Part shown: positions 1 through 10,981 of the stretch, one piece after another | Numbering within the stretch: the stretch's first letter is position 1 | Layout: each line of letters opens with the position of its first letter | From: a virus | Taxonomy: Duplodnaviria > Heunggongvirae > Uroviricota > Caudoviricetes | Virus record (IMG/VR): IMGVR_UViG_2778261688_000005 | Location: 1 to 10,981 of that record | Length of the DNA stretch: 10,981 nt | Strand: one strand, 5' to 3' | Program-made: the position numbers and the translations under genes | Notes under the pieces: model-generated | What the model saw: the letters and a program-made list of their open reading frames with translations, nothing else | Databases searched by the model: none | Told to the model about the DNA's origin: nothing

Positions 1-753
1 GACAGGCGTGTCATCAGCATGGAGCTTACCGTCAGTCAGCACATAGTCCTGAAGCGCTTCTTCCAGCGGTGACAGTAGCCGGCAGCATGCATCCACCCAG
101 CCCGACAGCAGTGAACGACTCAGCTCCACGCCCTGGCGGCCGTACATTTCAGACTGGCGGTACAGCGGGGTGTGCTCTGCATACTTTGAGATCAGCACGC
201 GGGCCAGCAGCCCCGGTCCTGCGATACCCCGCTCGATGGGCCGTGAAGGCGCGGGGGCCTGCACGATGGCATCGCACTGAGTACAGGCATGCTTTTCACG
301 TACAGTCCGGATAACCCGGAAGGCGCTGCGCATCAGCTCCAGCTGTTCGGCGGCATCCTCACCCAGATAGCTCAGCGAGCCTCCACATTCCGGGCAGCAT
401 GACGCTGCCGGCAGCAGCCGTTTTTCATCGCGGGGGAGTGATTCGGGGAACGGTTTGCGGGTGCGGGTTTGACGCAGCGGGCGCTGCACGGCCGGGTCGT
501 CAACCCGACCGGTAAGGGTATCACTTTCTTTCTGAAGTGCCTTCAGGTCAGCTTCCATCTGTGCGATACGACGGGAGACTTTTTCCGAGCGGCTGCCGAA
601 GTTCATCCGGCGCAGCTTATCCAGCTGTGCCTGCAGATGGTCTATTTCGCGTTCACGCTCGTTCAGCTTTTCCTGCAGGGCACGGTTCAGCGCCTCCTGT
701 TCGGCAAGGAGACGTTTCAGTGCATTGATATCGTCAGGAAGTGAGCTGCTCAT
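1..753 (-). CDS. tnpC: IS66-family transposase TnpC, N-terminal 251 codons (3' end beyond window start)
   Basis: Reverse complement of 751-753 is ATG, followed by MSSSLPDDINA... The antisense of plus ORF 469..744 gives the leucine-rich coiled-coil region (LKRLLAEQEALNRALQEKLNEREREIDHLQAQLDKLRR) and a CxxC zinc-finger-like stretch typical of IS66 TnpC. No stop codon occurs in this frame down to position 1. Confidence 0.8.
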   Translation of the reverse strand, partial: MSSSLPDDINALKRLLAEQEALNRALQEKLNEREREIDHLQAQLDKLRRMNFGSRSEKVSRRIAQMEADLKALQKESDTLTGRVDDPAVQRPLRQTRTRKPFPESLPRDEKRLLPAASCCPECGGSLSYLGEDAAEQLELMRSAFRVIRTVREKHACTQCDAIVQAPAPSRPIERGIAGPGLLARVLISKYAEHTPLYRQSEMYGRQGVELSRSLLSGWVDACCRLLSPLEEALQDYVLTDGKLHADDTPV

Positions 754-801
754 ACCGGGTATATTACCAGGCTCATTCAGCGTCGACCAGGATAAAGAGG
801 C

Positions 802-1149
802 TTACAACATAGTCAGGGACGTAAGCAGTCTTTTAGGCTGCCGCCAGTCGATACCTTCCAGCAGCATCGCCAGCTGTGCCGGTGTGAGGAACACTTTGCC
901 ATCCCGGGCTGACGGCCAGGCGAAGCGGCCGCGCTCCAGCCGTTTGGTCAGCAGACACAGTCCATCGCCGGTAGACCAGAGGAGCTTTACCTGACTGCCA
1001 TTACGCCCACGGAAGATAAAAACGTGACCTGACATCGGATCGTCTTTCAGCGTCGTCTGCACCTTTGCCGCCAGGCCGTTGAAGCCGTTTCTCATATCGG
1101 TGATGCCAGCGACCAGCCAGATCTTTGTCCCTGATGGTAATGGGATCAA
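802..1149 (-). CDS. tnpB: IS66-family accessory protein TnpB (IS66 Orf2)
   Basis: 115-aa ORF MIPLPSGTKIWLVAGITDMRNGFNGLAAKV... has the length and signature of IS66 Orf2. It overlaps tnpA by 4 nt, as is usual for IS66 orfA/orfB. Confidence 0.85.
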   Translation of the reverse strand: MIPLPSGTKIWLVAGITDMRNGFNGLAAKVQTTLKDDPMSGHVFIFRGRNGSQVKLLWSTGDGLCLLTKRLERGRFAWPSARDGKVFLTPAQLAMLLEGIDWRQPKRLLTSLTML

Positions 1150-1550
1150 CGTTTGAGCTCCCGTATCAGCAGGTTCAGGATATTTTCGCTGATGGCACCA
1201 TTCAGACGGAGTGATCCGTGCCGGAACGTCACTTCACAGCTGATATTGAGTGATTCAGGTGTCGCAGCAGCTACAGGTTGTGACCGGGGGGAGGTTGTAG
1301 GGACAACATCTTCGGCATCAAGTGTTATCGGGAGCAGCTCAGGCACGTTGTTTTCTGTTGTTGAAGGAGGACGTAGTTTTCCTTCGCGCCAGTACTGGCG
1401 CCACTTGAACAGCAAATTATCGTTGATCCCATGCTCACGAGCGAGTTGCGCTACGGAGATCTCTGGTCGATGCGAGAGTTCAACCATTTTGATTTTGAAC
1501 TCAACGGGATAATTAGGGCTTTTTTTACGCACTGCGGTTAATGATTTCAT
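1146..1550 (-). CDS. tnpA: IS66-family TnpA (IS66 Orf1, helix-turn-helix protein)
   Basis: 134-aa ORF MKSLTAVRKKSPNYPVEFKIKMVELSHRPEISVAQLAREHGIN... with an HTH-like N-terminus, first gene of the IS66 triad, about 80 bp inside the putative IR. Confidence 0.85.
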   Translation of the reverse strand: MKSLTAVRKKSPNYPVEFKIKMVELSHRPEISVAQLAREHGINDNLLFKWRQYWREGKLRPPSTTENNVPELLPITLDAEDVVPTTSPRSQPVAAATPESLNISCEVTFRHGSLRLNGAISENILNLLIRELKR

Positions 1551-1599
1551 GGATTGCGTCCACCATATTTGGTGTCCACTATTCTCTCAGGAATTTCAG

Positions 1600-1631
1600 G
1601 ATCTGCCAGACGGTGCTGAGACGACGCTTAC
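1600..1631 (-). repeat. Putative terminal inverted repeat of the IS66-family element
   Basis: Reverse complement starts GTAAGCGTCGTCTCAGCACCGTCTGGCAG. The partner repeat lies outside the window, so this cannot be confirmed here. Confidence 0.45.
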
Positions 1632-1733
1632 GATAAAGACGGCTTTCTTGCCACAAATGGCAGCACGTTAACCATTCAGTCAAATGGTGCGGCGTTTACT
1701 GCCACAACCATCAAGATAATCGCGGAGCAGTAA
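1632..1733 (+). pseudogene. 3'-terminal 33-codon remnant of an upstream phage gene (probably the tail needle / P22 gene 26 equivalent), truncated by the IS66 insertion
   Basis: Open frame from 1632 (first base outside the IS terminus) to TAA at 1731-1733 encodes DKDGFLATNGSTLTIQSNGAAFTATTIKIIAEQ*. The stop overlaps the next ATG (TAATG), which is typical operon coupling. Identification as tail needle is by synteny only (P22 order 26-14-7-20-16). Confidence 0.4.
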
Positions 1734-2188
1734 TGATTCAGTTCAAACCAACGCGAAACATCGACCTGATCGAAGCAGTCGGAAATCACCCTGACATTAT
1801 TGCCGGGAGCAACAACGGTGATGGATACGACTACAAACCTGATTGCCGTTACTTTGAGGTGAACGTGCACGGGCAGTTCGGCGGCATTGTTTACTATCAG
1901 GAGATTCAGCCGCTGACATTAGATTGCCACGCCATGTACCTGCCAGAGATTCGCGGCTTCAGCAAGGAAATTGGGCTGGCGTTCTGGCGATACATTCTGA
2001 CTAACACCACCGTTCAGTGCGTCACATCGTTCGCCGCACGCAAATTCCGCCACGGTCAGATGTACTGCGCAATGATTGGCCTTAAGCGTGTAGGAACCAT
2101 CAAGAAATACTTCAAAGGCGTGGATGACGTGACTTTTTACAGCGCCACACGAGAAGAACTAATCGACTTCCTGAATCACGGGAGATAG
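1733..2188 (+). CDS. P22 gene 14-like protein (151 aa)
   Basis: ORF sits immediately upstream of the gp7/gp20/gp16-like cassette, in the position of P22 gene 14. GGAG lies 5 nt upstream of the ATG, and the start overlaps the preceding stop. Confidence 0.7.
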   Translation: MIQFKPTRNIDLIEAVGNHPDIIAGSNNGDGYDYKPDCRYFEVNVHGQFGGIVYYQEIQPLTLDCHAMYLPEIRGFSKEIGLAFWRYILTNTTVQCVTSFAARKFRHGQMYCAMIGLKRVGTIKKYFKGVDDVTFYSATREELIDFLNHGR

Positions 2189-2190
2189 CC

Positions 2191-2883
2191 ATGTTATATG
2201 CATTTAAGCTGGGCAGAAAACTGCGCGGCGAGGAACCTTATTGCCCTGAAAAGGGTGGGAAAGGTGGCAGTTCTGATAAAAGCGCAAAGTATGCAGCAGA
2301 AGCTCAGAAGTATGCCGCAGACCTGCAAAATCAGCAGTGGCAGACGATCATGAAAAACCTTGCTCCGTTCACGCCGCTTGCGGAGCAGTATGTTAACCAG
2401 CTTCAGAACCTTTCCAGTTTAGAAGGACAGGGTCAGGCACTTAATCAGTATTACAACTCTCAGCAGTATAAAGACCTTGCAGGCCAGGCTCGTTACCAGA
2501 GTCTTGCTGCTGCGGAGGCTACGGGAGGACTTGGTTCGACAGCCACAAGCAATCAACTTGCTACGATCGCGCCGACTCTCGGTCAGTCTTGGTTATCAAA
2601 CCAGATGAGCAATTACAACAATCTGGCAAACGTTGGGCTTGGTGCTCTGCAAGGTCAGGCAAACGCCGGGCAGACGTACGCCAACAACATGAGCAGCATT
2701 GCACAGCAAAGCGCAGCTCTTGCCGCTGCTAATGCCAACAAACCATCAAGTCTTCAGACAGCAATTAGTGGCGGAACGTCTGGTGCGATTGCCGGTGCAG
2801 GTCTTGCCAGCCTTTTGGGAACATCAACACCTTGGGGCGCTGGCATTGGTGCTGGTATCGGATTGCTTGGCTCGTTGTTTTAA
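2191..2883 (+). CDS. Ejection (internal virion) protein, P22 gp7-like (230 aa)
   Basis: GGGAG is 6 nt upstream of the ATG. The size is close to P22 gp7 (about 229 aa). The C-terminus is Gly/Ala-rich and hydrophobic (GAIAGAGLASLLG...GAGIGAGIGLLGSLF), consistent with a membrane-inserting segment. Position is second in the 14-7-20-16 order. Confidence 0.75.
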   Translation: MLYAFKLGRKLRGEEPYCPEKGGKGGSSDKSAKYAAEAQKYAADLQNQQWQTIMKNLAPFTPLAEQYVNQLQNLSSLEGQGQALNQYYNSQQYKDLAGQARYQSLAAAEATGGLGSTATSNQLATIAPTLGQSWLSNQMSNYNNLANVGLGALQGQANAGQTYANNMSSIAQQSAALAAANANKPSSLQTAISGGTSGAIAGAGLASLLGTSTPWGAGIGAGIGLLGSLF

Positions 2884-2892
2884 GGGGTAATC

Positions 2893-4188
2893 ATGGCTAC
2901 TTGGCAAGGATCAAATGGCGGATTGTTAGCTGGTATCGGCGGCGTCAACTCAAACGCTCCGAGCGTAAATGACATCGGCAATACGCTTCAGCTTATCAGG
3001 CAGAACAATGATATTGAGCGTTCAGGCGCTAACAATGTTGGGCTGACTGCTTTGCAAGGCCTTTCAGGTATTGCGGGGGTGTTTCAGCAGGAAAAGCAGG
3101 CTCAGCGGCAGAAAGAATTTCAGCAGGCATACGCTAATGCTTATGCGTCTGGTGATCGCGGTGCTTTGCGTCAGTTGGCTACTCAATATCCAGACCAGAT
3201 TGAATCCGTTCGTAAAGGCATGGGATTCATTGATGAAGATCAGCGTAATTCTATCGGCACCTTAGCGGCTGGCGCACGCCTTGCGTCATCGTCTCCAGAA
3301 GCAATGCAATCATGGCTGCAAAACAACGCCAAGGAACTGACTCGCGTCGGTGTTGACCCTAATAACGTTGCTCAGATGTATCAGCAGAACCCTTCAGGAT
3401 TTGGTGAGTTTGTTGATCACCTTGGAATGGCTGCTCTTGGTCCGATTGATTACTTCAATGTTCAGGACAAGATGGCTGGTCGTGAAATTGACCGAGGCAG
3501 GCTGGCAGAGACAATCCGCAGCAATCAGGCTGGAGAAGCACTAACAGCGCGTGGTCAGGACATCCAGATACGTGGACAGAACATCAGCGCACAGAATGCT
3601 GCTCTTTCCCGCGAAATACAAAGAGCAGAATTACAAGAAAAGGCTCTGGACAGACAGATAGCCAGAGAAAGCAATCAGTTAAAGCTTGAAGAGCTAAAAC
3701 AGAAACAGGCAGATGTTCGGCAAAAGGCTGACATAGCCCGCGCTGACAGGCAGGCCGCCGCTCAGGGTGCAGTTGATACGTTCAGCACAGCACTTGATTC
3801 TCTCAACGAGATAGAGCAAAGCCCCGGCCTTTCAAAAGCAGTAGGAATTCGCTCAGCGTTTCCAACAGTTCCTGGCTCTGATGCGGCTAACTTTGAAGCA
3901 AGGCTCGACACCTTTAAAGCTCAAACTTTCCTTCCTATGGTGCAGTCCCTTAAGGGTATGGGGGCTCTTTCAGATGCTGAGGGTAAAAAATTATCCGATG
4001 CGGTTGGTGCCCTAAGCCCCAAAATGAGCGAAAAGGCTTTTCGTGACTCTATCGGAAAGATTAGAAATCAGCTTGAAAGCAAGTTGAGCACTGTTAAAAA
4101 ACAGTTTGATTATCAGGATCCAGTACAGAATACGCCAGGACAACAATCTCCTGCTGGCAGTAACTTTTCTTCACTATGGGGTGATTAA
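2893..4188 (+). CDS. Ejection protein, P22 gp20-like (431 aa)
   Basis: AAGGGG ribosome-binding site upstream. Contains a long charged coiled-coil-like segment (REIQRAELQEKALDRQIARESNQLKLEELKQKQADVRQKADIARADRQ). Third in the syntenic cassette; its stop overlaps the next start (TAATG at 4186-4190). Confidence 0.75.
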   Translation: MATWQGSNGGLLAGIGGVNSNAPSVNDIGNTLQLIRQNNDIERSGANNVGLTALQGLSGIAGVFQQEKQAQRQKEFQQAYANAYASGDRGALRQLATQYPDQIESVRKGMGFIDEDQRNSIGTLAAGARLASSSPEAMQSWLQNNAKELTRVGVDPNNVAQMYQQNPSGFGEFVDHLGMAALGPIDYFNVQDKMAGREIDRGRLAETIRSNQAGEALTARGQDIQIRGQNISAQNAALSREIQRAELQEKALDRQIARESNQLKLEELKQKQADVRQKADIARADRQAAAQGAVDTFSTALDSLNEIEQSPGLSKAVGIRSAFPTVPGSDAANFEARLDTFKAQTFLPMVQSLKGMGALSDAEGKKLSDAVGALSPKMSEKAFRDSIGKIRNQLESKLSTVKKQFDYQDPVQNTPGQQSPAGSNFSSLWGD

Positions 4189-6185
4189 TGGCTAAAGCAT
4201 GGAAAGATGTTATCGCCTCTCCACAGTATCAGGCGTTAGCACCAGAACAAAAAGCGCAGGCTCAGGAGCAATACTTCAATGAAGTCGTGGCCCCGCAAGC
4301 CGGAGAAAATGCAGAGCAGGCTAAGCAAGCTTTCTATGCAGCCTATCCATTGCCATCTGTGCAGCCAGTGGAGACACAGCAACCAGTAGCACAGCAACAA
4401 CCACAGCAAAGTGGATTTATGTCTGATCTTGGTGAAGCAGTGAAAGAGACTGGTCGCGGACTGGTGCAGGCTGGCGTGAACGTGGCAAACATACCTGCAT
4501 CAGTTGCCGATGCTGTAACAAGCGCGGCGGCTTGGGCTGGCGGTAAACTCGGCATTGGCGATGGTACATATCAACCAGCGCCACGAGTAACAACGCAGGG
4601 ATTAGAGCAGGACTTTGGCCTTCGGCAAGGTGCGCTGACTCCACAAACGACAGAGGGAAGGGTATTTGCTGAAGCATTGCCTTACCTCACTCCTGCTGGC
4701 GTTGAGAGAGCGGCGGTACAGGCACCAACACTTGCTGGTCGAATTGCTCATGGGGCAACTCGCCTTCTCGCAGAAAACGCAGTTGGATCACTTGCTGCAA
4801 ACAGTATGAAAGATGATGCGGAAGCACTCGCTACCGATTTAGGTGTTGGCGTTCTGGCAGGCGGCGCTATTAACGCTGCTGGACGTGGATTAGGTGCTGC
4901 TTATCGTGGCGTCCGCGGTGCTATTGCGCCAGAAGCGCAGCAAGCTATCAGATTTGCAGAGCGTGAAGGAGTTCCTCTGCACACCACAGACCTGTTACAA
5001 CCCACTTCCCGCGTCGGAAAAATGGCGCAGACTACAGCAGAAAATATCCCTCTGGCTGGCACAAGCGGAATGAGAGCAACGCAACAGGAAGCGAGAAGCC
5101 AGTTGGTGCAGAGATTTGCCGATAAATTCGGTGAGTATGATCCAGCGGTTGTTATTGACAGCCTTAAAGCGAAAACATCAGGAATTCGTCGTGCCGCCGG
5201 TAATCGACTGGAGCAGGTTCAGAATGCTATGGCTGGAGTAAACATTCAGCCTGCGCGAGCAATTCAGCAGATTGATACAGAAATATCTAACCTGCAGAAG
5301 CTTGGTAAGGTCGCCGATAACGAGACTATTTCAAAACTTCAGTCCTATCGTGATGAGCTTGTTCGCAATGCTGGTCCGGATGGTCCGGTAAATCTGGATT
5401 TGAAGCAATTAAGCGATCTGCGCAGCCAGTTCAGAATGGACGTGAAGGGGGAACGACCAGTGTTACCAAACCGTTCCGATGCTGCCATTCAGCGCGTTTA
5501 CAAGGCGATGACAGACGATATCAATGGTGCCATTGGTCAGAATCTTGGCAACGATACTCTCCGTAAATATCAGCAGGCCAATGCCGTCTACGCTGACGAA
5601 GCGGCGAAACTAAAGAATACCAGGCTGAAGAATGTTCTCATGAAAGGCGACCTGACGCCGGAAGTTGTCAACAACATGCTATTCAGCAAGAACAAATCGG
5701 AAATTAAGACGCTGTATAACTCAGTTGGTCGTGTTGGCAGGGCGCAAATGCGCAATGGCATCATTGGAAAGGCGATGGAGAAATCTGGCGGATCCCCTGA
5801 CCAGTTCCTTCGGCAGCTTAACATCCTGCAAAACCAGACTGGCATCACATTTAAAGGTCAGGAAGCCGCTTATCTGAAAGGATTGAAAAACTACCTGCAA
5901 TCCACGCAGCAGGCTGCAAAAGCAGCAGTAACAACACCAACAGGGCAGCAAACCATCCCGTTCATTATCGGGTATGGGACGGCAATGAACCCGGCGACAA
6001 CTGGCGCAGCGGTAAGCTACGGACTTCTTACTCGCGCCTATGAGAGCGAGCCATTCAGAAATGCAATGCTCCGAATGGCAAATACCCCACGCGGATCGAC
6101 AGCGTTTGAGAAAGCCATGCAGCAAGCGCAAAAAGCGATTAATGCACTGACGCAGGGTGCGAAGTCTGATTCGTTGTCAGAATAG
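4188..6185 (+). CDS. Ejection protein, P22 gp16-like (665 aa)
   Basis: Large Ala/Gln-rich protein, last gene of the cassette and translationally coupled to the gp20-like gene. The size is in the range of P22 gp16 (about 609 aa). Confidence 0.75.
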   Translation: MAKAWKDVIASPQYQALAPEQKAQAQEQYFNEVVAPQAGENAEQAKQAFYAAYPLPSVQPVETQQPVAQQQPQQSGFMSDLGEAVKETGRGLVQAGVNVANIPASVADAVTSAAAWAGGKLGIGDGTYQPAPRVTTQGLEQDFGLRQGALTPQTTEGRVFAEALPYLTPAGVERAAVQAPTLAGRIAHGATRLLAENAVGSLAANSMKDDAEALATDLGVGVLAGGAINAAGRGLGAAYRGVRGAIAPEAQQAIRFAEREGVPLHTTDLLQPTSRVGKMAQTTAENIPLAGTSGMRATQQEARSQLVQRFADKFGEYDPAVVIDSLKAKTSGIRRAAGNRLEQVQNAMAGVNIQPARAIQQIDTEISNLQKLGKVADNETISKLQSYRDELVRNAGPDGPVNLDLKQLSDLRSQFRMDVKGERPVLPNRSDAAIQRVYKAMTDDINGAIGQNLGNDTLRKYQQANAVYADEAAKLKNTRLKNVLMKGDLTPEVVNNMLFSKNKSEIKTLYNSVGRVGRAQMRNGIIGKAMEKSGGSPDQFLRQLNILQNQTGITFKGQEAAYLKGLKNYLQSTQQAAKAAVTTPTGQQTIPFIIGYGTAMNPATTGAAVSYGLLTRAYESEPFRNAMLRMANTPRGSTAFEKAMQQAQKAINALTQGAKSDSLSE

Positions 6186-6226
6186 CCTTTCAAACACCAG
6201 GAACGTGCAAAAACCAAATATGTAGA

Positions 6227-6254
6227 ATGCAATATTCATCATATCTCTTTGCAT
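6227..6254. promoter_or_regulatory. Second copy of the dyad motif (ATGCAA-N16-TTGCAT with internal CATCATATC) in the gp16 / mnt intergenic region
   Basis: ATGCAA 6227-6232, CATCATATC 6237-6245, TTGCAT 6249-6254. Same sequence elements as the 6609-6637 site, arranged differently. Confidence 0.25.
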
Positions 6255-6274
6255 AAATCCTCCGTAATGGATGG

Positions 6275-6535
6275 TTAGTTGCTGTCTTTTTTATATAGCT
6301 CCTTGAGCGTATCAAAGACAATTTTCTTAACCATATCAGATTGTTGTTCTGCCATACGCTCTGCATCGTCAATGTAAACTGATGCAGAGCTTTGTTTATC
6401 CAATGATTCTTCAATCGCTGCAATTATCTCTGAGTTCAGCGACCTGTTATTCATCTTCGCACGCTGCTTAATTTTCGCGTGGAGTTCATGCGGAAGTCTC
6501 AAGTGAAACTGCGCCTCGTCGTATTTGCTGTACAT
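6275..6535 (-). CDS. mnt: Mnt-like ribbon-helix-helix repressor (Arc/Mnt family); the ORF extends to an upstream ATG at 6568, but the internal ATG at 6535 aligns with the P22 Mnt start
   Basis: FHLRLPHELHAKIKQRAKMNNRSLNSEIIAAIEESL matches the RHH region of P22 Mnt as I recall it (HFNFRMPMEVREKLKFRAEANGRSMNSELLQIVQDAL). The C-terminus DDAERMAEQQSDMVKKIVFDTLKELYKK matches the Mnt tetramerisation helix (NDAERLADEQSELVKKMVFDTLKDLYKK). Confidence 0.8.
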   Translation of the reverse strand: MYSKYDEAQFHLRLPHELHAKIKQRAKMNNRSLNSEIIAAIEESLDKQSSASVYIDDAERMAEQQSDMVKKIVFDTLKELYKKDSN

Positions 6536-6608
6536 CCTTGATGCCTCACCAGTTGGGTGGAATGGCATCGTAACCTACTGGATAAATACTCAATAGTACC
6601 ATTTCGGT

Positions 6609-6637
6609 ATGCAATCACATCATGGTTGCATCATATC
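6609..6637. promoter_or_regulatory. Dyad element ATGCAA-N11-TTGCAT followed by CATCATATC in the mnt / tailspike divergent intergenic region; candidate operator and promoter region
   Basis: ATGCAA at 6609-6614 and its reverse complement TTGCAT at 6626-6631; the 9-mer CATCATATC at 6629-6637 is repeated on the other side of mnt. It lies between two divergently transcribed genes. Confidence 0.3.
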
Positions 6638-6656
6638 ATTCGTTTGGAGCAATGAA

Positions 6657-8639
6657 ATGTCAGATATCACCGCAAATGTTGTGGTAAGCATGCCTTCGCA
6701 ACTCTTCACTATGGCTCGTTCTTTTAAAGCCGTAGCCAATGGCAAAATTTATATCGGAAAAATTGACACTGACCCGGTAAATCCAGAAAACCAGATCCAG
6801 GTTTATGTGGAGAACGAAGATGGCTCTCATGTTCCTGTTTCGCAACCAATCATCATTAACGCTGCTGGATATCCGGTATATAACGGACAGATTGCCAAGT
6901 TCGTAACTGTGCAAGGCCATTCTATGGCTGTTTATGATGCGTACGGTGCGCAGCAGTTCTATTTTCCTAATGTGCTGAAGTATGACCCGGATCAGCTTGA
7001 GCAGAGGCTCTCTTCTTTTGATGGGCAAAAATATATAGGAGTATGTCCAGACATTGTCACATTACGAACAATAGAGCCAACGGTTGATGGCCAAATGATA
7101 ACTCTTAAGCAACACACAGATGGAACAGGGATTGGTGGTGGTAGATTTCGCGCTGTTTTACATGGTGAATCTTACTCTGATAACAACGGGACTATAGTTA
7201 AAACTGTTGGCGGCTCTGCTTGGTTGCGCATTAATGCTGATGTAGTAAACCCATTGATGTTTGGAGCTTATGGAGACGGTATTACTGATGACACGGAAGC
7301 TGTTAATAATGCAATTGCTTCATCAAGCAATATTGATGGCGTTGCAAACACATACCTTGTATCAGGTAATGGCATACAAATTCAGCATGGTAAAACATTT
7401 AAAAATGCAACAATAACTGAGTCGAAAGCAAGCAATGCCGTTATGCTGAGATTTACAGGTAGTAATTCGGCAATAGAAAACATTATTTTCGATGGTTCCA
7501 ATGGATTAACAAGCAGAGGGGTAATTGTCAACGCTGGTCTTTCTGATATACACATCTACAAATGCAGAGCGACTGACCTTAAAAAACCATTTGTAGGAGT
7601 GTCTGGAGACTATGATAATAATCTTTTCTGTGTTCGAGTAACAATTGAAAAATGTTTCGCCAATAACTGCGGAAATGATGGTACAAATTACGACCGTTCA
7701 ACAATAATATTTGACGGGGTTTCAGGTTGCACTGTAAAAGATTGCTATTTCAGCTCATGCAATTGGGGAATTACTTTCAGACAGCCGTATGACTACCCAG
7801 AGTTAACAAAACCTTATGCGTACTACAACAGAGTTGATGGTTGCTACTTATCCGGGAAGACCGGTTACCCATATAATCAGGGTATCAGCGCGCAAAGCCA
7901 AAAACATTTCTCAGCATCAGGAAACACGATAGAAGGATTTTTAGGTAACGCTATCGATAACCAAAGATGTGACTTTAGTCGCATCGAAAACAATAAACTT
8001 TCATCCGGAGATGATGGTATCTTTTTTGGTGATTTAAACTGCAAGGGCCACGTTGTGACTGGTAACGTGATTACTGGATGTGCAAGGGGTATTAGGGTTT
8101 ACGGTGCCGTTGGAGATTGGGCTAATCAGGCCATGACGGATATCACCATAACCGGTAACATAATAACGGACTCCACCGTAGTAGGCATCTATGTGTACCG
8201 CACGGAGCCGACTAACTCCTTTGCTGGTTTTAACATCACAGAAAATATCATAGACAACTCAGGCACAAGGTCGCTAACCGGCAACACACAAGGCATTCTC
8301 GTAACAGGGTTGTCAGGTGGCGTCGTGTCGAATAACGTTATACGCAATACACGCATGGAAGGGTTAAGGTTCGTTAACTCTGTCGGGGTTGTGGCTGTGG
8401 GTAATTCTGTGACTGGATTCGATTACTCTGCTACGGCGCAAGCTGGTATTTACATCGATGTAACTTCAAGAGGTATACAACTAAGAAATTCAACTGTTTC
8501 ATCTTCAGGTGGTTCAGGTGCAGCAGTTAGAGAAGCGGGCGTTAATAACACGGTCACCGGAACCAGATGGAATGGAGTCACTACTGGGGTTAACTCAACC
8601 GGCACAGGTGCTGTATTGGACGATAACGTTGGATTTTAA
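6657..8639 (+). CDS. Tailspike protein: P22-type head-binding N-terminal domain fused to a right-handed beta-helix (pectate-lyase-like) receptor-binding domain, a putative polysaccharide depolymerase
   Basis: From the ATG at 6657 (GGAG 7 nt upstream) the protein starts [59 protein letters not shown]...VLKYDPDQ, which matches the P22 gp9 N-terminus ([43 protein letters not shown]...). After about residue 115 it diverges into a sequence with a [21 protein letters not shown] motif and repetitive G/N/T/V-rich beta-helix-like segments. The ORF track starts at 6609, but the homology-supported start is 6657. Confidence 0.85.
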
Positions 8640-8641
8640 AA

Positions 8642-8666
8642 AAAGAGCGCCTTGTTGGCGCTCTTT
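8642..8666. terminator. Hairpin terminator between the convergent tailspike and acyltransferase genes
   Basis: AAAGAGCGCC-TTGTT-GGCGCTCTTT gives a 10-bp stem with a 5-nt loop. On the minus strand it is followed by a run of seven T (complement of AAAAAAA at 8638-8644), a strong intrinsic terminator for the acyltransferase transcript. On the plus strand only TTT follows. Confidence 0.6.
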
Positions 8667-8668
8667 AA

Positions 8669-9691
8669 TCACGTTATTATTTTCAATTTATTCTTTATCA
8701 TTATTGGTAAAATTGGTACTATAATTCCGAGAAAAACATACAATATAAATGAGAATTGATTGTATACATTATTTAGCTTCCCATGCTCATGGTTTTCAAA
8801 TCCAAAAAATAGAAATAATAAATTTAACATTGCAAAAACAGATAGATGCCATGACATTATTGTTTTCGAATTGTCTCCTATCATTTTCAATAATCTATTA
8901 TATTTAGATGATAGGATATTGGATATTATTAACACTACAAAGATACATATCAATGATGCTATTGATGTCATAATAAAACCAGATGGGTATGTTGACCATG
9001 CCATTGCACTTTGTTTTATCAATCCAAATGATATCATTGTTCCTGTTATAACTATCAAAATCATTGCTGATATTGGGTTATTTACTGTTAGTGATTGTTT
9101 TTTTAGTGAAAAGCCAAGTAGCATAAACATAGAACCATAAAGTGACTGTGCGGAAACATTATAAATTTGATATCCAGTCTCCTTAAATTTTACTGCGCAT
9201 ATGTTAAGCGCCACAAAGCCAATAATTATTGCAATTATAATTAACGTAATATTTTGGTGTTTAAACTCAGTAGTTACTGAGATTATAATCCTTGATATTA
9301 TTGATGATAAGTAATAAGCAAGCAAAAACCAACAAACAAGAAATAATGGGTTGTTGTGAAAGTTCTTTTCTAGTGGGTTGGTAGTGAACGGTTCGCCAAA
9401 ATACAGTCCTGTAAATTTATTTAGTGTTATTGCTAAAACTCCAGTTAGAATGTACGTAAAAACAATGTATGGGATTATTTTTTTTGATAGTTTTCTCAAT
9501 GCGTTGAACGTAACTATCTCATTTTTTAATGTCAATCCACCAACAAAAAAGAAAAAAGGCATGTGATATAAATACGGATGCATTACATTAAAGAACCCAC
9601 TTGTGTAATGACCTATCACAACAACTATTATGCCGATTGCCTTCATGTAACTTATGGACAAGCTTTGTTCATTGGTAATTTGGTGCATTTT
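8669..9691 (-). CDS. oac: Acyltransferase-3 family integral membrane protein, Oac-like O-antigen acetyltransferase (lysogenic conversion); the ORF extends to an ATG at 9733, but 9691 is the preferred start
   Basis: Polytopic hydrophobic protein of about 340 aa with a conserved His early in the first membrane segment (MKAIGIIVVVIGHY) and an FFFFVGG motif. It sits between tailspike and integrase, as oac does in Sf6 and the gtr genes do in P22. The gene is markedly AT-rich relative to its flanks. The second ATG is preceded by AAGAGA; the first has no Shine-Dalgarno sequence. Confidence 0.75.
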   Translation of the reverse strand, partial: KMHQITNEQSLSISYMKAIGIIVVVIGHYTSGFFNVMHPYLYHMPFFFFVGGLTLKNEIVTFNALRKLSKKIIPYIVFTYILTGVLAITLNKFTGLYFGEPFTTNPLEKNFHNNPLFLVCWFLLAYYLSSIISRIIISVTTEFKHQNITLIIIAIIIGFVALNICAVKFKETGYQIYNVSAQSLYGSMFMLLGFSLKKQSLTVNNPISAMILIVITGTMISFGLIKQSAMAWSTYPSGFIMTSIASLICIFVVLIISNILSSKYNRLLKMIGDNSKTIMSWHLSVFAMLNLLFLFFGFENHEHGKLNNVYNQFSFILYVFLGIIVPILPIMIKNKLKIIT

Positions 9692-9733
9692 TATCTCTTC
9701 ATTTCTATGTGGCAATATTTTCGCAAAAAACAT

Positions 9734-9823
9734 ACGAATGTTAATTTATTAATATACCAATAACATTTGAGTTAGTATGCAATTTTAAAATGTTTGTTCT
9801 ATGTGTGTGCTTTGGATGATATA
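9734..9823 (-). promoter_or_regulatory. AT-rich intergenic region upstream of the acyltransferase gene; likely promoter and possible attP location by synteny
   Basis: The minus strand contains TTGCAT (9777-9782) and an extended -10-like TGGTATATT (about 9751-9759), but the spacing between them is about 20 nt, which is too long. No tRNA-like core is visible. Confidence 0.25.
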
Positions 9824-10981
9824 TCACTCCACCTTTTCATCAAGCCAGTCCGCCCACCACTGCATCATTTCTCTGCGCTTATCTAGATATTGAGCATGGT
9901 TGTAAATCCCGCGCACAGATCCGCCGTTGGCATGTGCCAGTTGCACTTCAATAGCGTCAGCAGGCCATTCGTGCTCGTTCATAATCGTGCTGAATTCATG
10001 CCTGAATCCGTGACCGCTTTCCAGCCCCTCATAGCCGATTTGTTTGATCACAAGTAGCACCGCGTTCTCGCAGATTGGCTTCTTCTTATCGTTACGCCCT
10101 GCAAAAACAAACTCTGATACTGGTTTGGTGATGGAGCTTAACGTAGTGAGAAGTTCAACCACCTGGTCTGACATCGGGACCACATGAATTTTGCGTCCCT
10201 TCATCACATTGGCGTCGATGGTGATAATCCTGTTTTCAAAATCGACGTTCTTCCATAGCATGGAACGAAGCTCTTTTGTTCTGAGGGCTGTGTAGCGTAA
10301 AACTTTGGTCGCAATGAGCGATACGATACTTCCTGAAAATGTTGCCAGTGCTTTGTTAAATGCCGGGATCTGGTCTGCAGGAAGAAACGGGAAGTTCTTC
10401 TTGCGGTATCCTTTCATGGCGTCAGCAAGGTCAGGTGCCGGGTTATATTTAGCCCTGCCGGTGACAATAGCGTAACGGAAAACCTCGCCGCATCTTCTGC
10501 GGGCTTTATTTGCTCGCTCCATTGCGCCGCGATCTTCAAATCTGCGGATTACTTCCAGCAGTTGCATCGGCTCAATATCCTGAATTTCAAGGCCGCCGAT
10601 GATGGGTAAAATGTCGTCATCAAACATTTTGGCAAGTTCAGTTGCATAGCCTACTGACCAGACTTGCTTCTTGTGCTCGTACCATTCCTTGTAAATCGCA
10701 CTAAAGGAATTGTTGTTAGACGAAGCCTTTTTCGCCTTTACCGGATCGATGCCAACCGAGATGTCTTTCCTCGCAGTCCATGCTTTATCCCTTGCCTCTT
10801 GCAAAGTCATAAGCGGATATTTTCCGACGGTCAGGATTTTCTCCTTACCGTCAATCTTGTAGCGAAGCTGCCATACCTTTTTCCCGGATACAGGGACATA
10901 AAGGTACAGGCCATTACCATCGAGAAGGCGGTATGGTTTTTCTTTCGGCTTTGCTGCTTCAATCTGCTTAACGGTGAGCAT
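9824..10981 (-). CDS. int: Tyrosine site-specific integrase, P4-type (arm-binding N-terminal domain plus catalytic domain)
   Basis: 385-aa ORF. The N-terminus LTVKQIEAAKPKEKPYRLLDGNGLYLYVPVSGKKVWQLRYKIDGKE is the typical P4-family arm-binding domain. The C-terminus carries the catalytic residues in HGFRHEFST...LAHANGGSVRGIYNHAQY (R...HxxR...Y). The start ATG is the last codon of the window, so the true N-terminus could lie a few codons further upstream. Confidence 0.9.
   Translation of the reverse strand: MLTVKQIEAAKPKEKPYRLLDGNGLYLYVPVSGKKVWQLRYKIDGKEKILTVGKYPLMTLQEARDKAWTARKDISVGIDPVKAKKASSNNNSFSAIYKEWYEHKKQVWSVGYATELAKMFDDDILPIIGGLEIQDIEPMQLLEVIRRFEDRGAMERANKARRRCGEVFRYAIVTGRAKYNPAPDLADAMKGYRKKNFPFLPADQIPAFNKALATFSGSIVSLIATKVLRYTALRTKELRSMLWKNVDFENRIITIDANVMKGRKIHVVPMSDQVVELLTTLSSITKPVSEFVFAGRNDKKKPICENAVLLVIKQIGYEGLESGHGFRHEFSTIMNEHEWPADAIEVQLAHANGGSVRGIYNHAQYLDKRREMMQWWADWLDEKVE

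Follow-up and report, generated by a model that had tools for sequence, protein, structure and literature searches.

The window (the whole stretch of 10,981 nt that was analyzed) carries on its minus strand a gene for an AT3 membrane acyltransferase, located between the integrase and tailspike genes of a Sf6/P22-like E. coli prophage. The longest ORF reading goes from 9733 to 8669 and gives 354 aa. The best definition of the gene is 8669..9688, with the ATG at 9688..9686 and a TGA stop at 8671..8669, which corresponds to a protein of 339 aa. Its immediate upstream neighbor on the same strand is the integrase gene (9824..10981, 385 aa), whose ATG is formed by the last three bases of the window and whose product is an IntS of the HK620/Sf6 type with Pfam Phage_integrase domains. 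The tailspike gene is convergent. The same prophage context was also seen in the copies L081-L090, and homologous loci have a yfdC/mlaA chromosomal flank. The acyltransferase gene has a GC content of 29.6% versus 48-49% in the phage genes on either side, and the 135-nt gap separating it from int is AT-rich (25% GC). The 25-30% GC found over positions 8669-9823, which comprise the acyltransferase gene and its leader, is typical of cargo genes ("morons") acquired horizontally.

Between the convergent tailspike and acyltransferase genes there is a GC-rich hairpin of 10 bp followed by a T-run (AAAGAGCGCC-aacaa-GGCGCTCTTT, 8643..8666), which is likely the intrinsic terminator of the acyltransferase gene. 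It was overlooked by a consensus scan for intrinsic terminators and was revealed by folding, the region reaching -18.5 kcal/mol. The tailspike ORF (plus strand) presents, at positions 6609-6659, a start ambiguity of the kind discussed below. Its first ATG, at 6609, gives 676 aa, has no Shine-Dalgarno (SD) sequence (+0.7 kcal/mol) and is probably not the true start; the conserved P22-type N-terminus is obtained from ATG 6657, giving 660 aa, as called in the homologous loci.

The acyltransferase is visibly hydrophobic along its whole length. The Pfam profile Acyl_transf_3 (PF01757) matches the 354-aa reading with an E-value of 1.4e-15 and 57.7 bits (cut-off 31), residues 26-340 corresponding to profile positions 3-321 of 326. 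In an alignment of 28 sequences (A1), K31 and H42 (numbering of the long reading) are invariant, and their codons (9608..9643, minus strand) delimit the R/K-X10-H motif of the first transmembrane helix (TMH1). This motif was found in all bacterial AT3 acetyltransferases aligned by Pearson et al., and the corresponding OafA residues, R14 and H25, are essential (PMC7448272). The near-full-length PF01757 match and the presence of R/K-X10-H in TMH1, with its catalytic His, are what is expected for a member of the AT3 family. No second Pfam domain was found after AT3 and the protein ends at residue 339, so it lacks the C-terminal periplasmic SGNH domain that follows an 11th helix in fused acyltransferases of the AT3-SGNH type (OafA, OafB and GtrC). 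Searches against NCBIfam and PHROG returned no hit and thus no finer family assignment. The reading frame, the start position and the membership in the AT3 family are demonstrated by these comparisons and by those described below.

All the in-frame ATGs that precede the first membrane helix are on the minus strand, and there are three of them, as the original prediction had counted. The first (9731..9733) is M1 of the 354-aa reading, the second (9686..9688) is M16 and the third (9644..9646) is M30, immediately followed by the K of the K-X10-H motif of TMH1. The first and third had been placed correctly, but the second had been put at 9691, 3 nt away from its position. The change of 14 residues at the N-terminus attributed to the choice between the first two has also to be corrected, since 15 residues separate ATG 9733 from ATG 9688, and 14 is the distance from ATG 9688 to ATG 9646. 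Based on comparisons among homologous genes, it is highly probable that translation of the acyltransferase begins at the second in-frame ATG (9688..9686), resulting in an AT3-only integral membrane protein of 339 aa. This start is already used in public annotation (NCBI) and is nothing new biologically. All named NCBI records of this protein have 339 aa, with the 354-aa form being restricted to unnamed automatic calls on five short contigs. For cloning, tagging and structural modelling it is important to have the gene model right (339 aa, start at 9688); a wrong start leads to either a spurious extension of 15 residues or a truncation of 14 residues directly ahead of the catalytic first helix.

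In the protein database, a 100% identical protein of 339 aa (P0001) was found, as well as orthologues with 35-86% identity. DNA was fetched for 23 orthologous loci and then for five more. In orthologues with 50 to 82% identity, in-frame stops are located 1 to 12 codons upstream of the start equivalent to M16: at -12 in Enterobacter (L091-093), at -9 in E. coli L094/097/098 and in L099, at -1 in L100, and at -11 in L101. Those orthologues have no alternative upstream start, or a GTG at -3 only. The distant orthologues come from varied contexts, including an Enterobacter prophage remnant, other tailspike-linked prophages of E. coli and Enterobacter, and a chromosomal locus. In the alignment A1, 20 of the 26 database homologues start exactly at M16 and the other 6 start one codon later. 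The annotated starts of homologues are predictions, and the evidence from stop codons and from the frameshift described below is independent of them. Conservation sets in a few codons past ATG 9688 and well before ATG 9646, residues 17-21 being variable, as expected right after a start.

A T homopolymer (9725..9730, minus strand) immediately follows ATG 9733 and contains six, seven or eight T's depending on the allele (T6, T7 or T8). In 12 independently retrieved and nearly identical E. coli prophage copies (the window, L081-L090 and L105), the segment 9877..9689 is identical except for this T-run. T6 is found in 5 copies (window, L081, L083, L084 and L086), T7 in 6 (L082, L085, L087, L089, L090 and L105) and T8 in a single one (L088). 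Four other copies (L106-L109) were retrieved via the 354-aa form, being T6 by construction, and were left out of this count. In T7 and T8 alleles, ATG 9733 falls out of frame and gives rise to no more than a uORF of 9 or 14 codons, while the protein from M16 on is either 100% identical (P0001 alleles L082 and L085) or 86% identical (P0002 alleles) to that of the window. Since the first ATG is frameshifted in these alleles and the protein from M16 is nevertheless kept, the stretch 9733-9689 is free of coding constraint. The length of the T-run varies together with linked SNPs in int (9908 and 9890), which identifies it as a trait of the lineage rather than read or sequencing noise. Judging by these alleles, ATG 9733 is dispensable and not a functional start. 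Its being in frame in the window is due solely to the six T's of this lineage, where others have seven or eight, and the 45 nt from ATG 9733 to ATG 9688 would constitute an untranslated leader. A frameshifting indel among nearly identical alleles can resolve a question about a start codon without experiment.

The P0002 alleles (L087-L090) share the leader and the N-terminal part with the window protein, the first DNA difference appearing at window position 9599. Past this point there are about 165 DNA differences, with 86% amino acid identity overall, which suggests that P0002 is the product of a recombinant, mosaic acyltransferase gene.

Between the second and third ATGs, the codons for EQSLSISY (residues 22-29) were compared with those of six orthologues and show 4 to 6 synonymous and no non-synonymous differences in four of them (L091, L094, L097 and L100), with 2 replacements in L099 and 4 in L101. 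S24 remains almost invariant among homologues with as little as 35% identity. The conservation of EQSLSISY upstream, together with the Pfam match starting at residue 26, indicates that ATG 9646 encodes an internal methionine. No database entry of this exact sequence begins at M30; for a truncated-looking homologue, P0012, the annotated start is the equivalent Met. When translation is read from ATG 9688, a 15-residue N-terminal tail (MHQITNEQSLSISYM) precedes K16 and H27 (K31 and H42 of the long numbering), so the motif lies at an essentially canonical position, with the geometry seen in characterised AT3 O-acetyltransferases, and from ATG 9646 the Lys would be residue 2.

The signals for translation initiation are less informative than the comparisons. 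The original prediction had described an AAGAGA sequence 5 nt upstream of the second ATG, which is indeed found at 9694..9699 (minus strand), followed by the spacer TAAAA. The energies of the anti-SD duplexes are -2.9 kcal/mol for ATG 9688, +1.6 for ATG 9733 and -1.0 for ATG 9646. ATG 9688 is thus the best of the three, as had been argued, although its SD is weak and statistically unremarkable: 30% of the 405 ATG trinucleotides in the window have a pairing equal to or better than that of AAGAGA, and among six other long ORFs that were checked, five have values from -4.1 to -8.4, the sixth being the tailspike with its first ATG at 6609. AAGAGA belongs to a translation-initiation motif, (A/G)AG(A/T)GATAAA(A/T)ATG, common to some orthologues. 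The initiation regions read gaAGAGAtaaaaATG in the window, atAGAGAtaaatATG in L099 and aaAGTGAtaaaaATG in L094; the partial motif AGAGATAAA(A/T)ATG is shared by the window and L099, and by L094 with one change. Stronger SDs are found at the equivalent position in L091 (GGGGTGAG, -6.0) and L100 (AGAGAAGGA, -5.5). The minimum-energy fold of the leader places AUG 9733 in a stem and leaves both the SD and AUG 9688 unpaired. The mean unpaired probabilities (0.48, 0.54 and 0.58 for AUGs 9733, 9688 and 9646) differ little, and RNA accessibility does not strongly discriminate between the three AUGs. Taken together, the sequence signals weakly favor ATG 9688, where initiation would use a weak SD in an unstructured A-rich region.

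An in-frame TTG at 9715 was also considered as a start and rejected, since it has no SD (+0.1 kcal/mol) and is not matched in orthologues. An out-of-frame mini-ORF (ATG AAG AGA TAA, 9691-9702, minus strand) overlaps AAGAGA and terminates 2 nt ahead of ATG 9688. In the T8 allele, the uORF opened by ATG 9733 enters the frame of this mini-ORF (9702..9691) and stops there, at the same distance from ATG 9688.

The leader contains three promoter-like sites, all on the minus strand. The extended -10-like sequence originally reported at about 9751-9759 is present there (TGGTATATT, 9751..9759), and from this candidate promoter, P_A, transcription would start near 9744. It has no usable -35 at 16-18 nt, hence its absence from the list of the sigma-70 scan. 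As an argument for the start codon this sequence is weak, since matches of this type occur at chance frequency: TGNTATAAT, with at most one mismatch, is found 13 times in the window, where 10.2 ± 3.0 are expected. The sigma-70-like candidate P_B (TTAACA-16-TGcGAAAAT, 9717..9744) matches 9/12 positions of the consensus plus the TG, and its start is predicted near 9710. The T-run falls in its spacer, which therefore measures 16, 17 or 18 in T6, T7 and T8 alleles. The third site (TTGCCA-17-AAAAAT, 9715..9687) would start the transcript downstream of ATG 9688. In a 1.5-kb region, 10 sigma-70-like sites were found versus 8.7 expected. With three candidates in an AT-rich leader and a density no higher than chance, the assignment of a promoter by consensus scan was dropped. 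A 10-mer common to the leaders of the window and of the Salmonella P0024 (ATTGGTATAT) was also rejected as a conserved -10; it is plausibly a chance match in AT-rich DNA, and the hexamer differs in its downstream base. If transcription started at P_A, ATG 9733 would lie about 11 nt from the 5' end, without SD, and it would be absent from an mRNA starting at P_B.

Initiation at the second ATG, as the original prediction had favored, is then supported by the stops in orthologues and by the T6/T7/T8 frameshift, and not by the SD and -10 arguments first offered for it. The proposed search for conserved coding sequence upstream of this ATG in orthologues gave a negative result, with stops 1 to 12 codons upstream and the first ATG frameshifted in T7 and T8.

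A start at ATG 9733 would add the tail MFFAKILPHRNEEIK, making the 354-aa protein either the principal product or an additional isoform of T6 lineages. This reading is the longest ORF, it stays in frame in L081/083/084/086 as in the window, and some automatic gene callers picked it on the five short contigs. Initiation without a Shine-Dalgarno sequence is possible in AT-rich leaders, and a minor isoform could be made if 9733 is part of a transcript, such as one reading through from int or one starting from the TGGTATATT site. However, T7 and T8 alleles, in which the frame of this ATG is lost, keep the same protein, and no orthologue has an equivalent of the extension, all of them having stops upstream of the start equivalent to M16. 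In addition, ATG 9733 has no SD pairing and lies only about 11 nt from the P_A start and upstream of the P_B start. Beyond the open frame, nothing favors the 354-aa isoform, and we regard this start as very improbable. Even less credible, to the point of being nearly negligible, is a start at ATG 9646, which would produce a 325-aa protein beginning with MK at the TMH1 motif. This protein would preserve the K-X10-H motif, and the TTGCCA-17-AAAAAT site would fit such a start by placing the 5' end of the transcript after ATG 9688; but sites like this one are at chance density. Furthermore, residues 22-29 are under purifying selection (synonymous-only in 4/6 orthologues, and conserved down to 35% identity), the Pfam domain begins ahead of M30, the SD pairing is poor, and the M30 start is unused in database entries of the exact sequence, P0012 alone being annotated from the equivalent position.

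The T-run itself could be read as a regulatory switch, in which the T6/T7/T8 tract either tunes the P_B spacer or exchanges an in-frame extension for short uORFs that modulate initiation at 9688. It is the sole polymorphism in the gap between int and the acyltransferase gene, it lies exactly in the spacer of a promoter-like site with 9/12 matches plus TG, and the T8 uORF ends immediately before ATG 9688. Phase variation is known to arise through homopolymer tracts in promoter spacers, and a switch of this kind would control the expression of a prophage surface-modification gene. On the other hand, six to eight T's are short for frequent slippage, the tract length behaves as a stable lineage marker by following linked SNPs, and the TTAACA-N16-TGcGAAAAT match is not above chance, which makes the switch very unlikely. 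With translation from ATG 9688 as the preferred reading, the T-run would simply belong to the untranslated leader.

The closest parallel for the organization of the locus is Sf6. Its backbone covers 57% of window positions 1-8700 at 96% identity, including the DNA-injection genes and the beginning of the tailspike gene. The Sf6 oac gene (gene 15, encoding the LPS O-antigen acetylase) occupies an equivalent slot, with int, an acyltransferase on the same strand, a terminator and a convergent tailspike. The Sf6 annotation gives oac a putative promoter of its own between int and oac, as well as a "putative terminator for oac gene transcription", the latter matching the position of the hairpin found here. 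Sf6 Oac is from the same Pfam superfamily, AT3-only, with about 335 aa and a short N-terminal tail before the R-X10-H of TMH1 (MHKSNCFDTARLVAAMMVLVSH). Nevertheless, it shows no significant pairwise similarity with the window protein (best BLASTP E-value of 0.016 over 35 residues), and the int-oac intergenic DNA is unrelated to that of the window, only the 3' end of int matching. The gene thus occupies a temperate-phage cargo slot like that of the serotype-converting O-antigen O-acetyltransferases of the Sf6 Oac type, next to int and tailspike and with its own terminator, while sequence relatedness to the Oac/OacB/OacC/OacD proteins was not observed in a comparison that covered Sf6 Oac.

We suggest that this is a low-GC cargo gene ("moron") inserted in the integrase/tailspike slot of a P22/Sf6-like prophage, with its own AT-rich leader and terminator hairpin. 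A promoter of its own in the gap after int would drive the acyltransferase gene in the lysogen. By analogy with the gene position, its product probably acylates a surface polysaccharide there, most likely the host O-antigen.

In comparison with OafA and OafB of Salmonella (PMC7448272), the AT3 R/K-X10-H motif of TMH1 is located at nearly equal residue numbers (R14/H25 in OafA and K16/H27 here). TMH1 is also followed by an FF..GG-type motif, and close to where the RXXR motif sits there is a basic cluster, RKLSKK. Unlike these AT3-SGNH proteins, the 339-aa window protein has no fused periplasmic SGNH domain, and RXXR is not strictly present. True homologues are found among the "Fucose 4-O-acetylase-like" AT3 proteins of Enterobacter, E. 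coli and Salmonella prophages (P0021, P0027 and P0028; P0024/P0025 in Salmonella), a name that comes from automatic annotation. Their identities are 35-86% across more than 90% of the length, their starts line up with M16, and many adjoin tailspike genes of P22-like prophages.

Searches with the gene in 50,697 phage records (DNA and tblastn) gave no match, only the 3' end of int being found, and the same was observed in 5,426 complete E. coli genomes, with nothing beyond the 3' end of int. The DNA used in the comparisons was therefore obtained from draft assemblies encoding the protein. A profile scan with alignment A1 in a collection with one genome per species recovered only distant AT3 relatives (up to 37% identity), of no use for the start question, and exact-pattern scans for the leader in viral and metagenome contigs found no further copies.

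Some of the assemblies show related genes in other surroundings. In L083 (1-3000), the gene is identical and the leader is the same back to about window position 9908, with no integrase gene called upstream. This copy adjoins biotin-synthesis genes (radical-SAM/BATS and aminotransferase) and a PBP-family gene, and these different neighbors indicate that the module is also found in another chromosomal or prophage context. In Hafnia alvei (L095/L096, 916-3044), an orthologue with 60% identity has an N-terminal tail 10 residues longer, so the length of this tail is not strictly fixed in the family. It is the second of two tandem AT3 genes with overlapping stop and start codons, and the pair is located outside a prophage, adjoining a type I-F CRISPR-Cas (Csy) locus.
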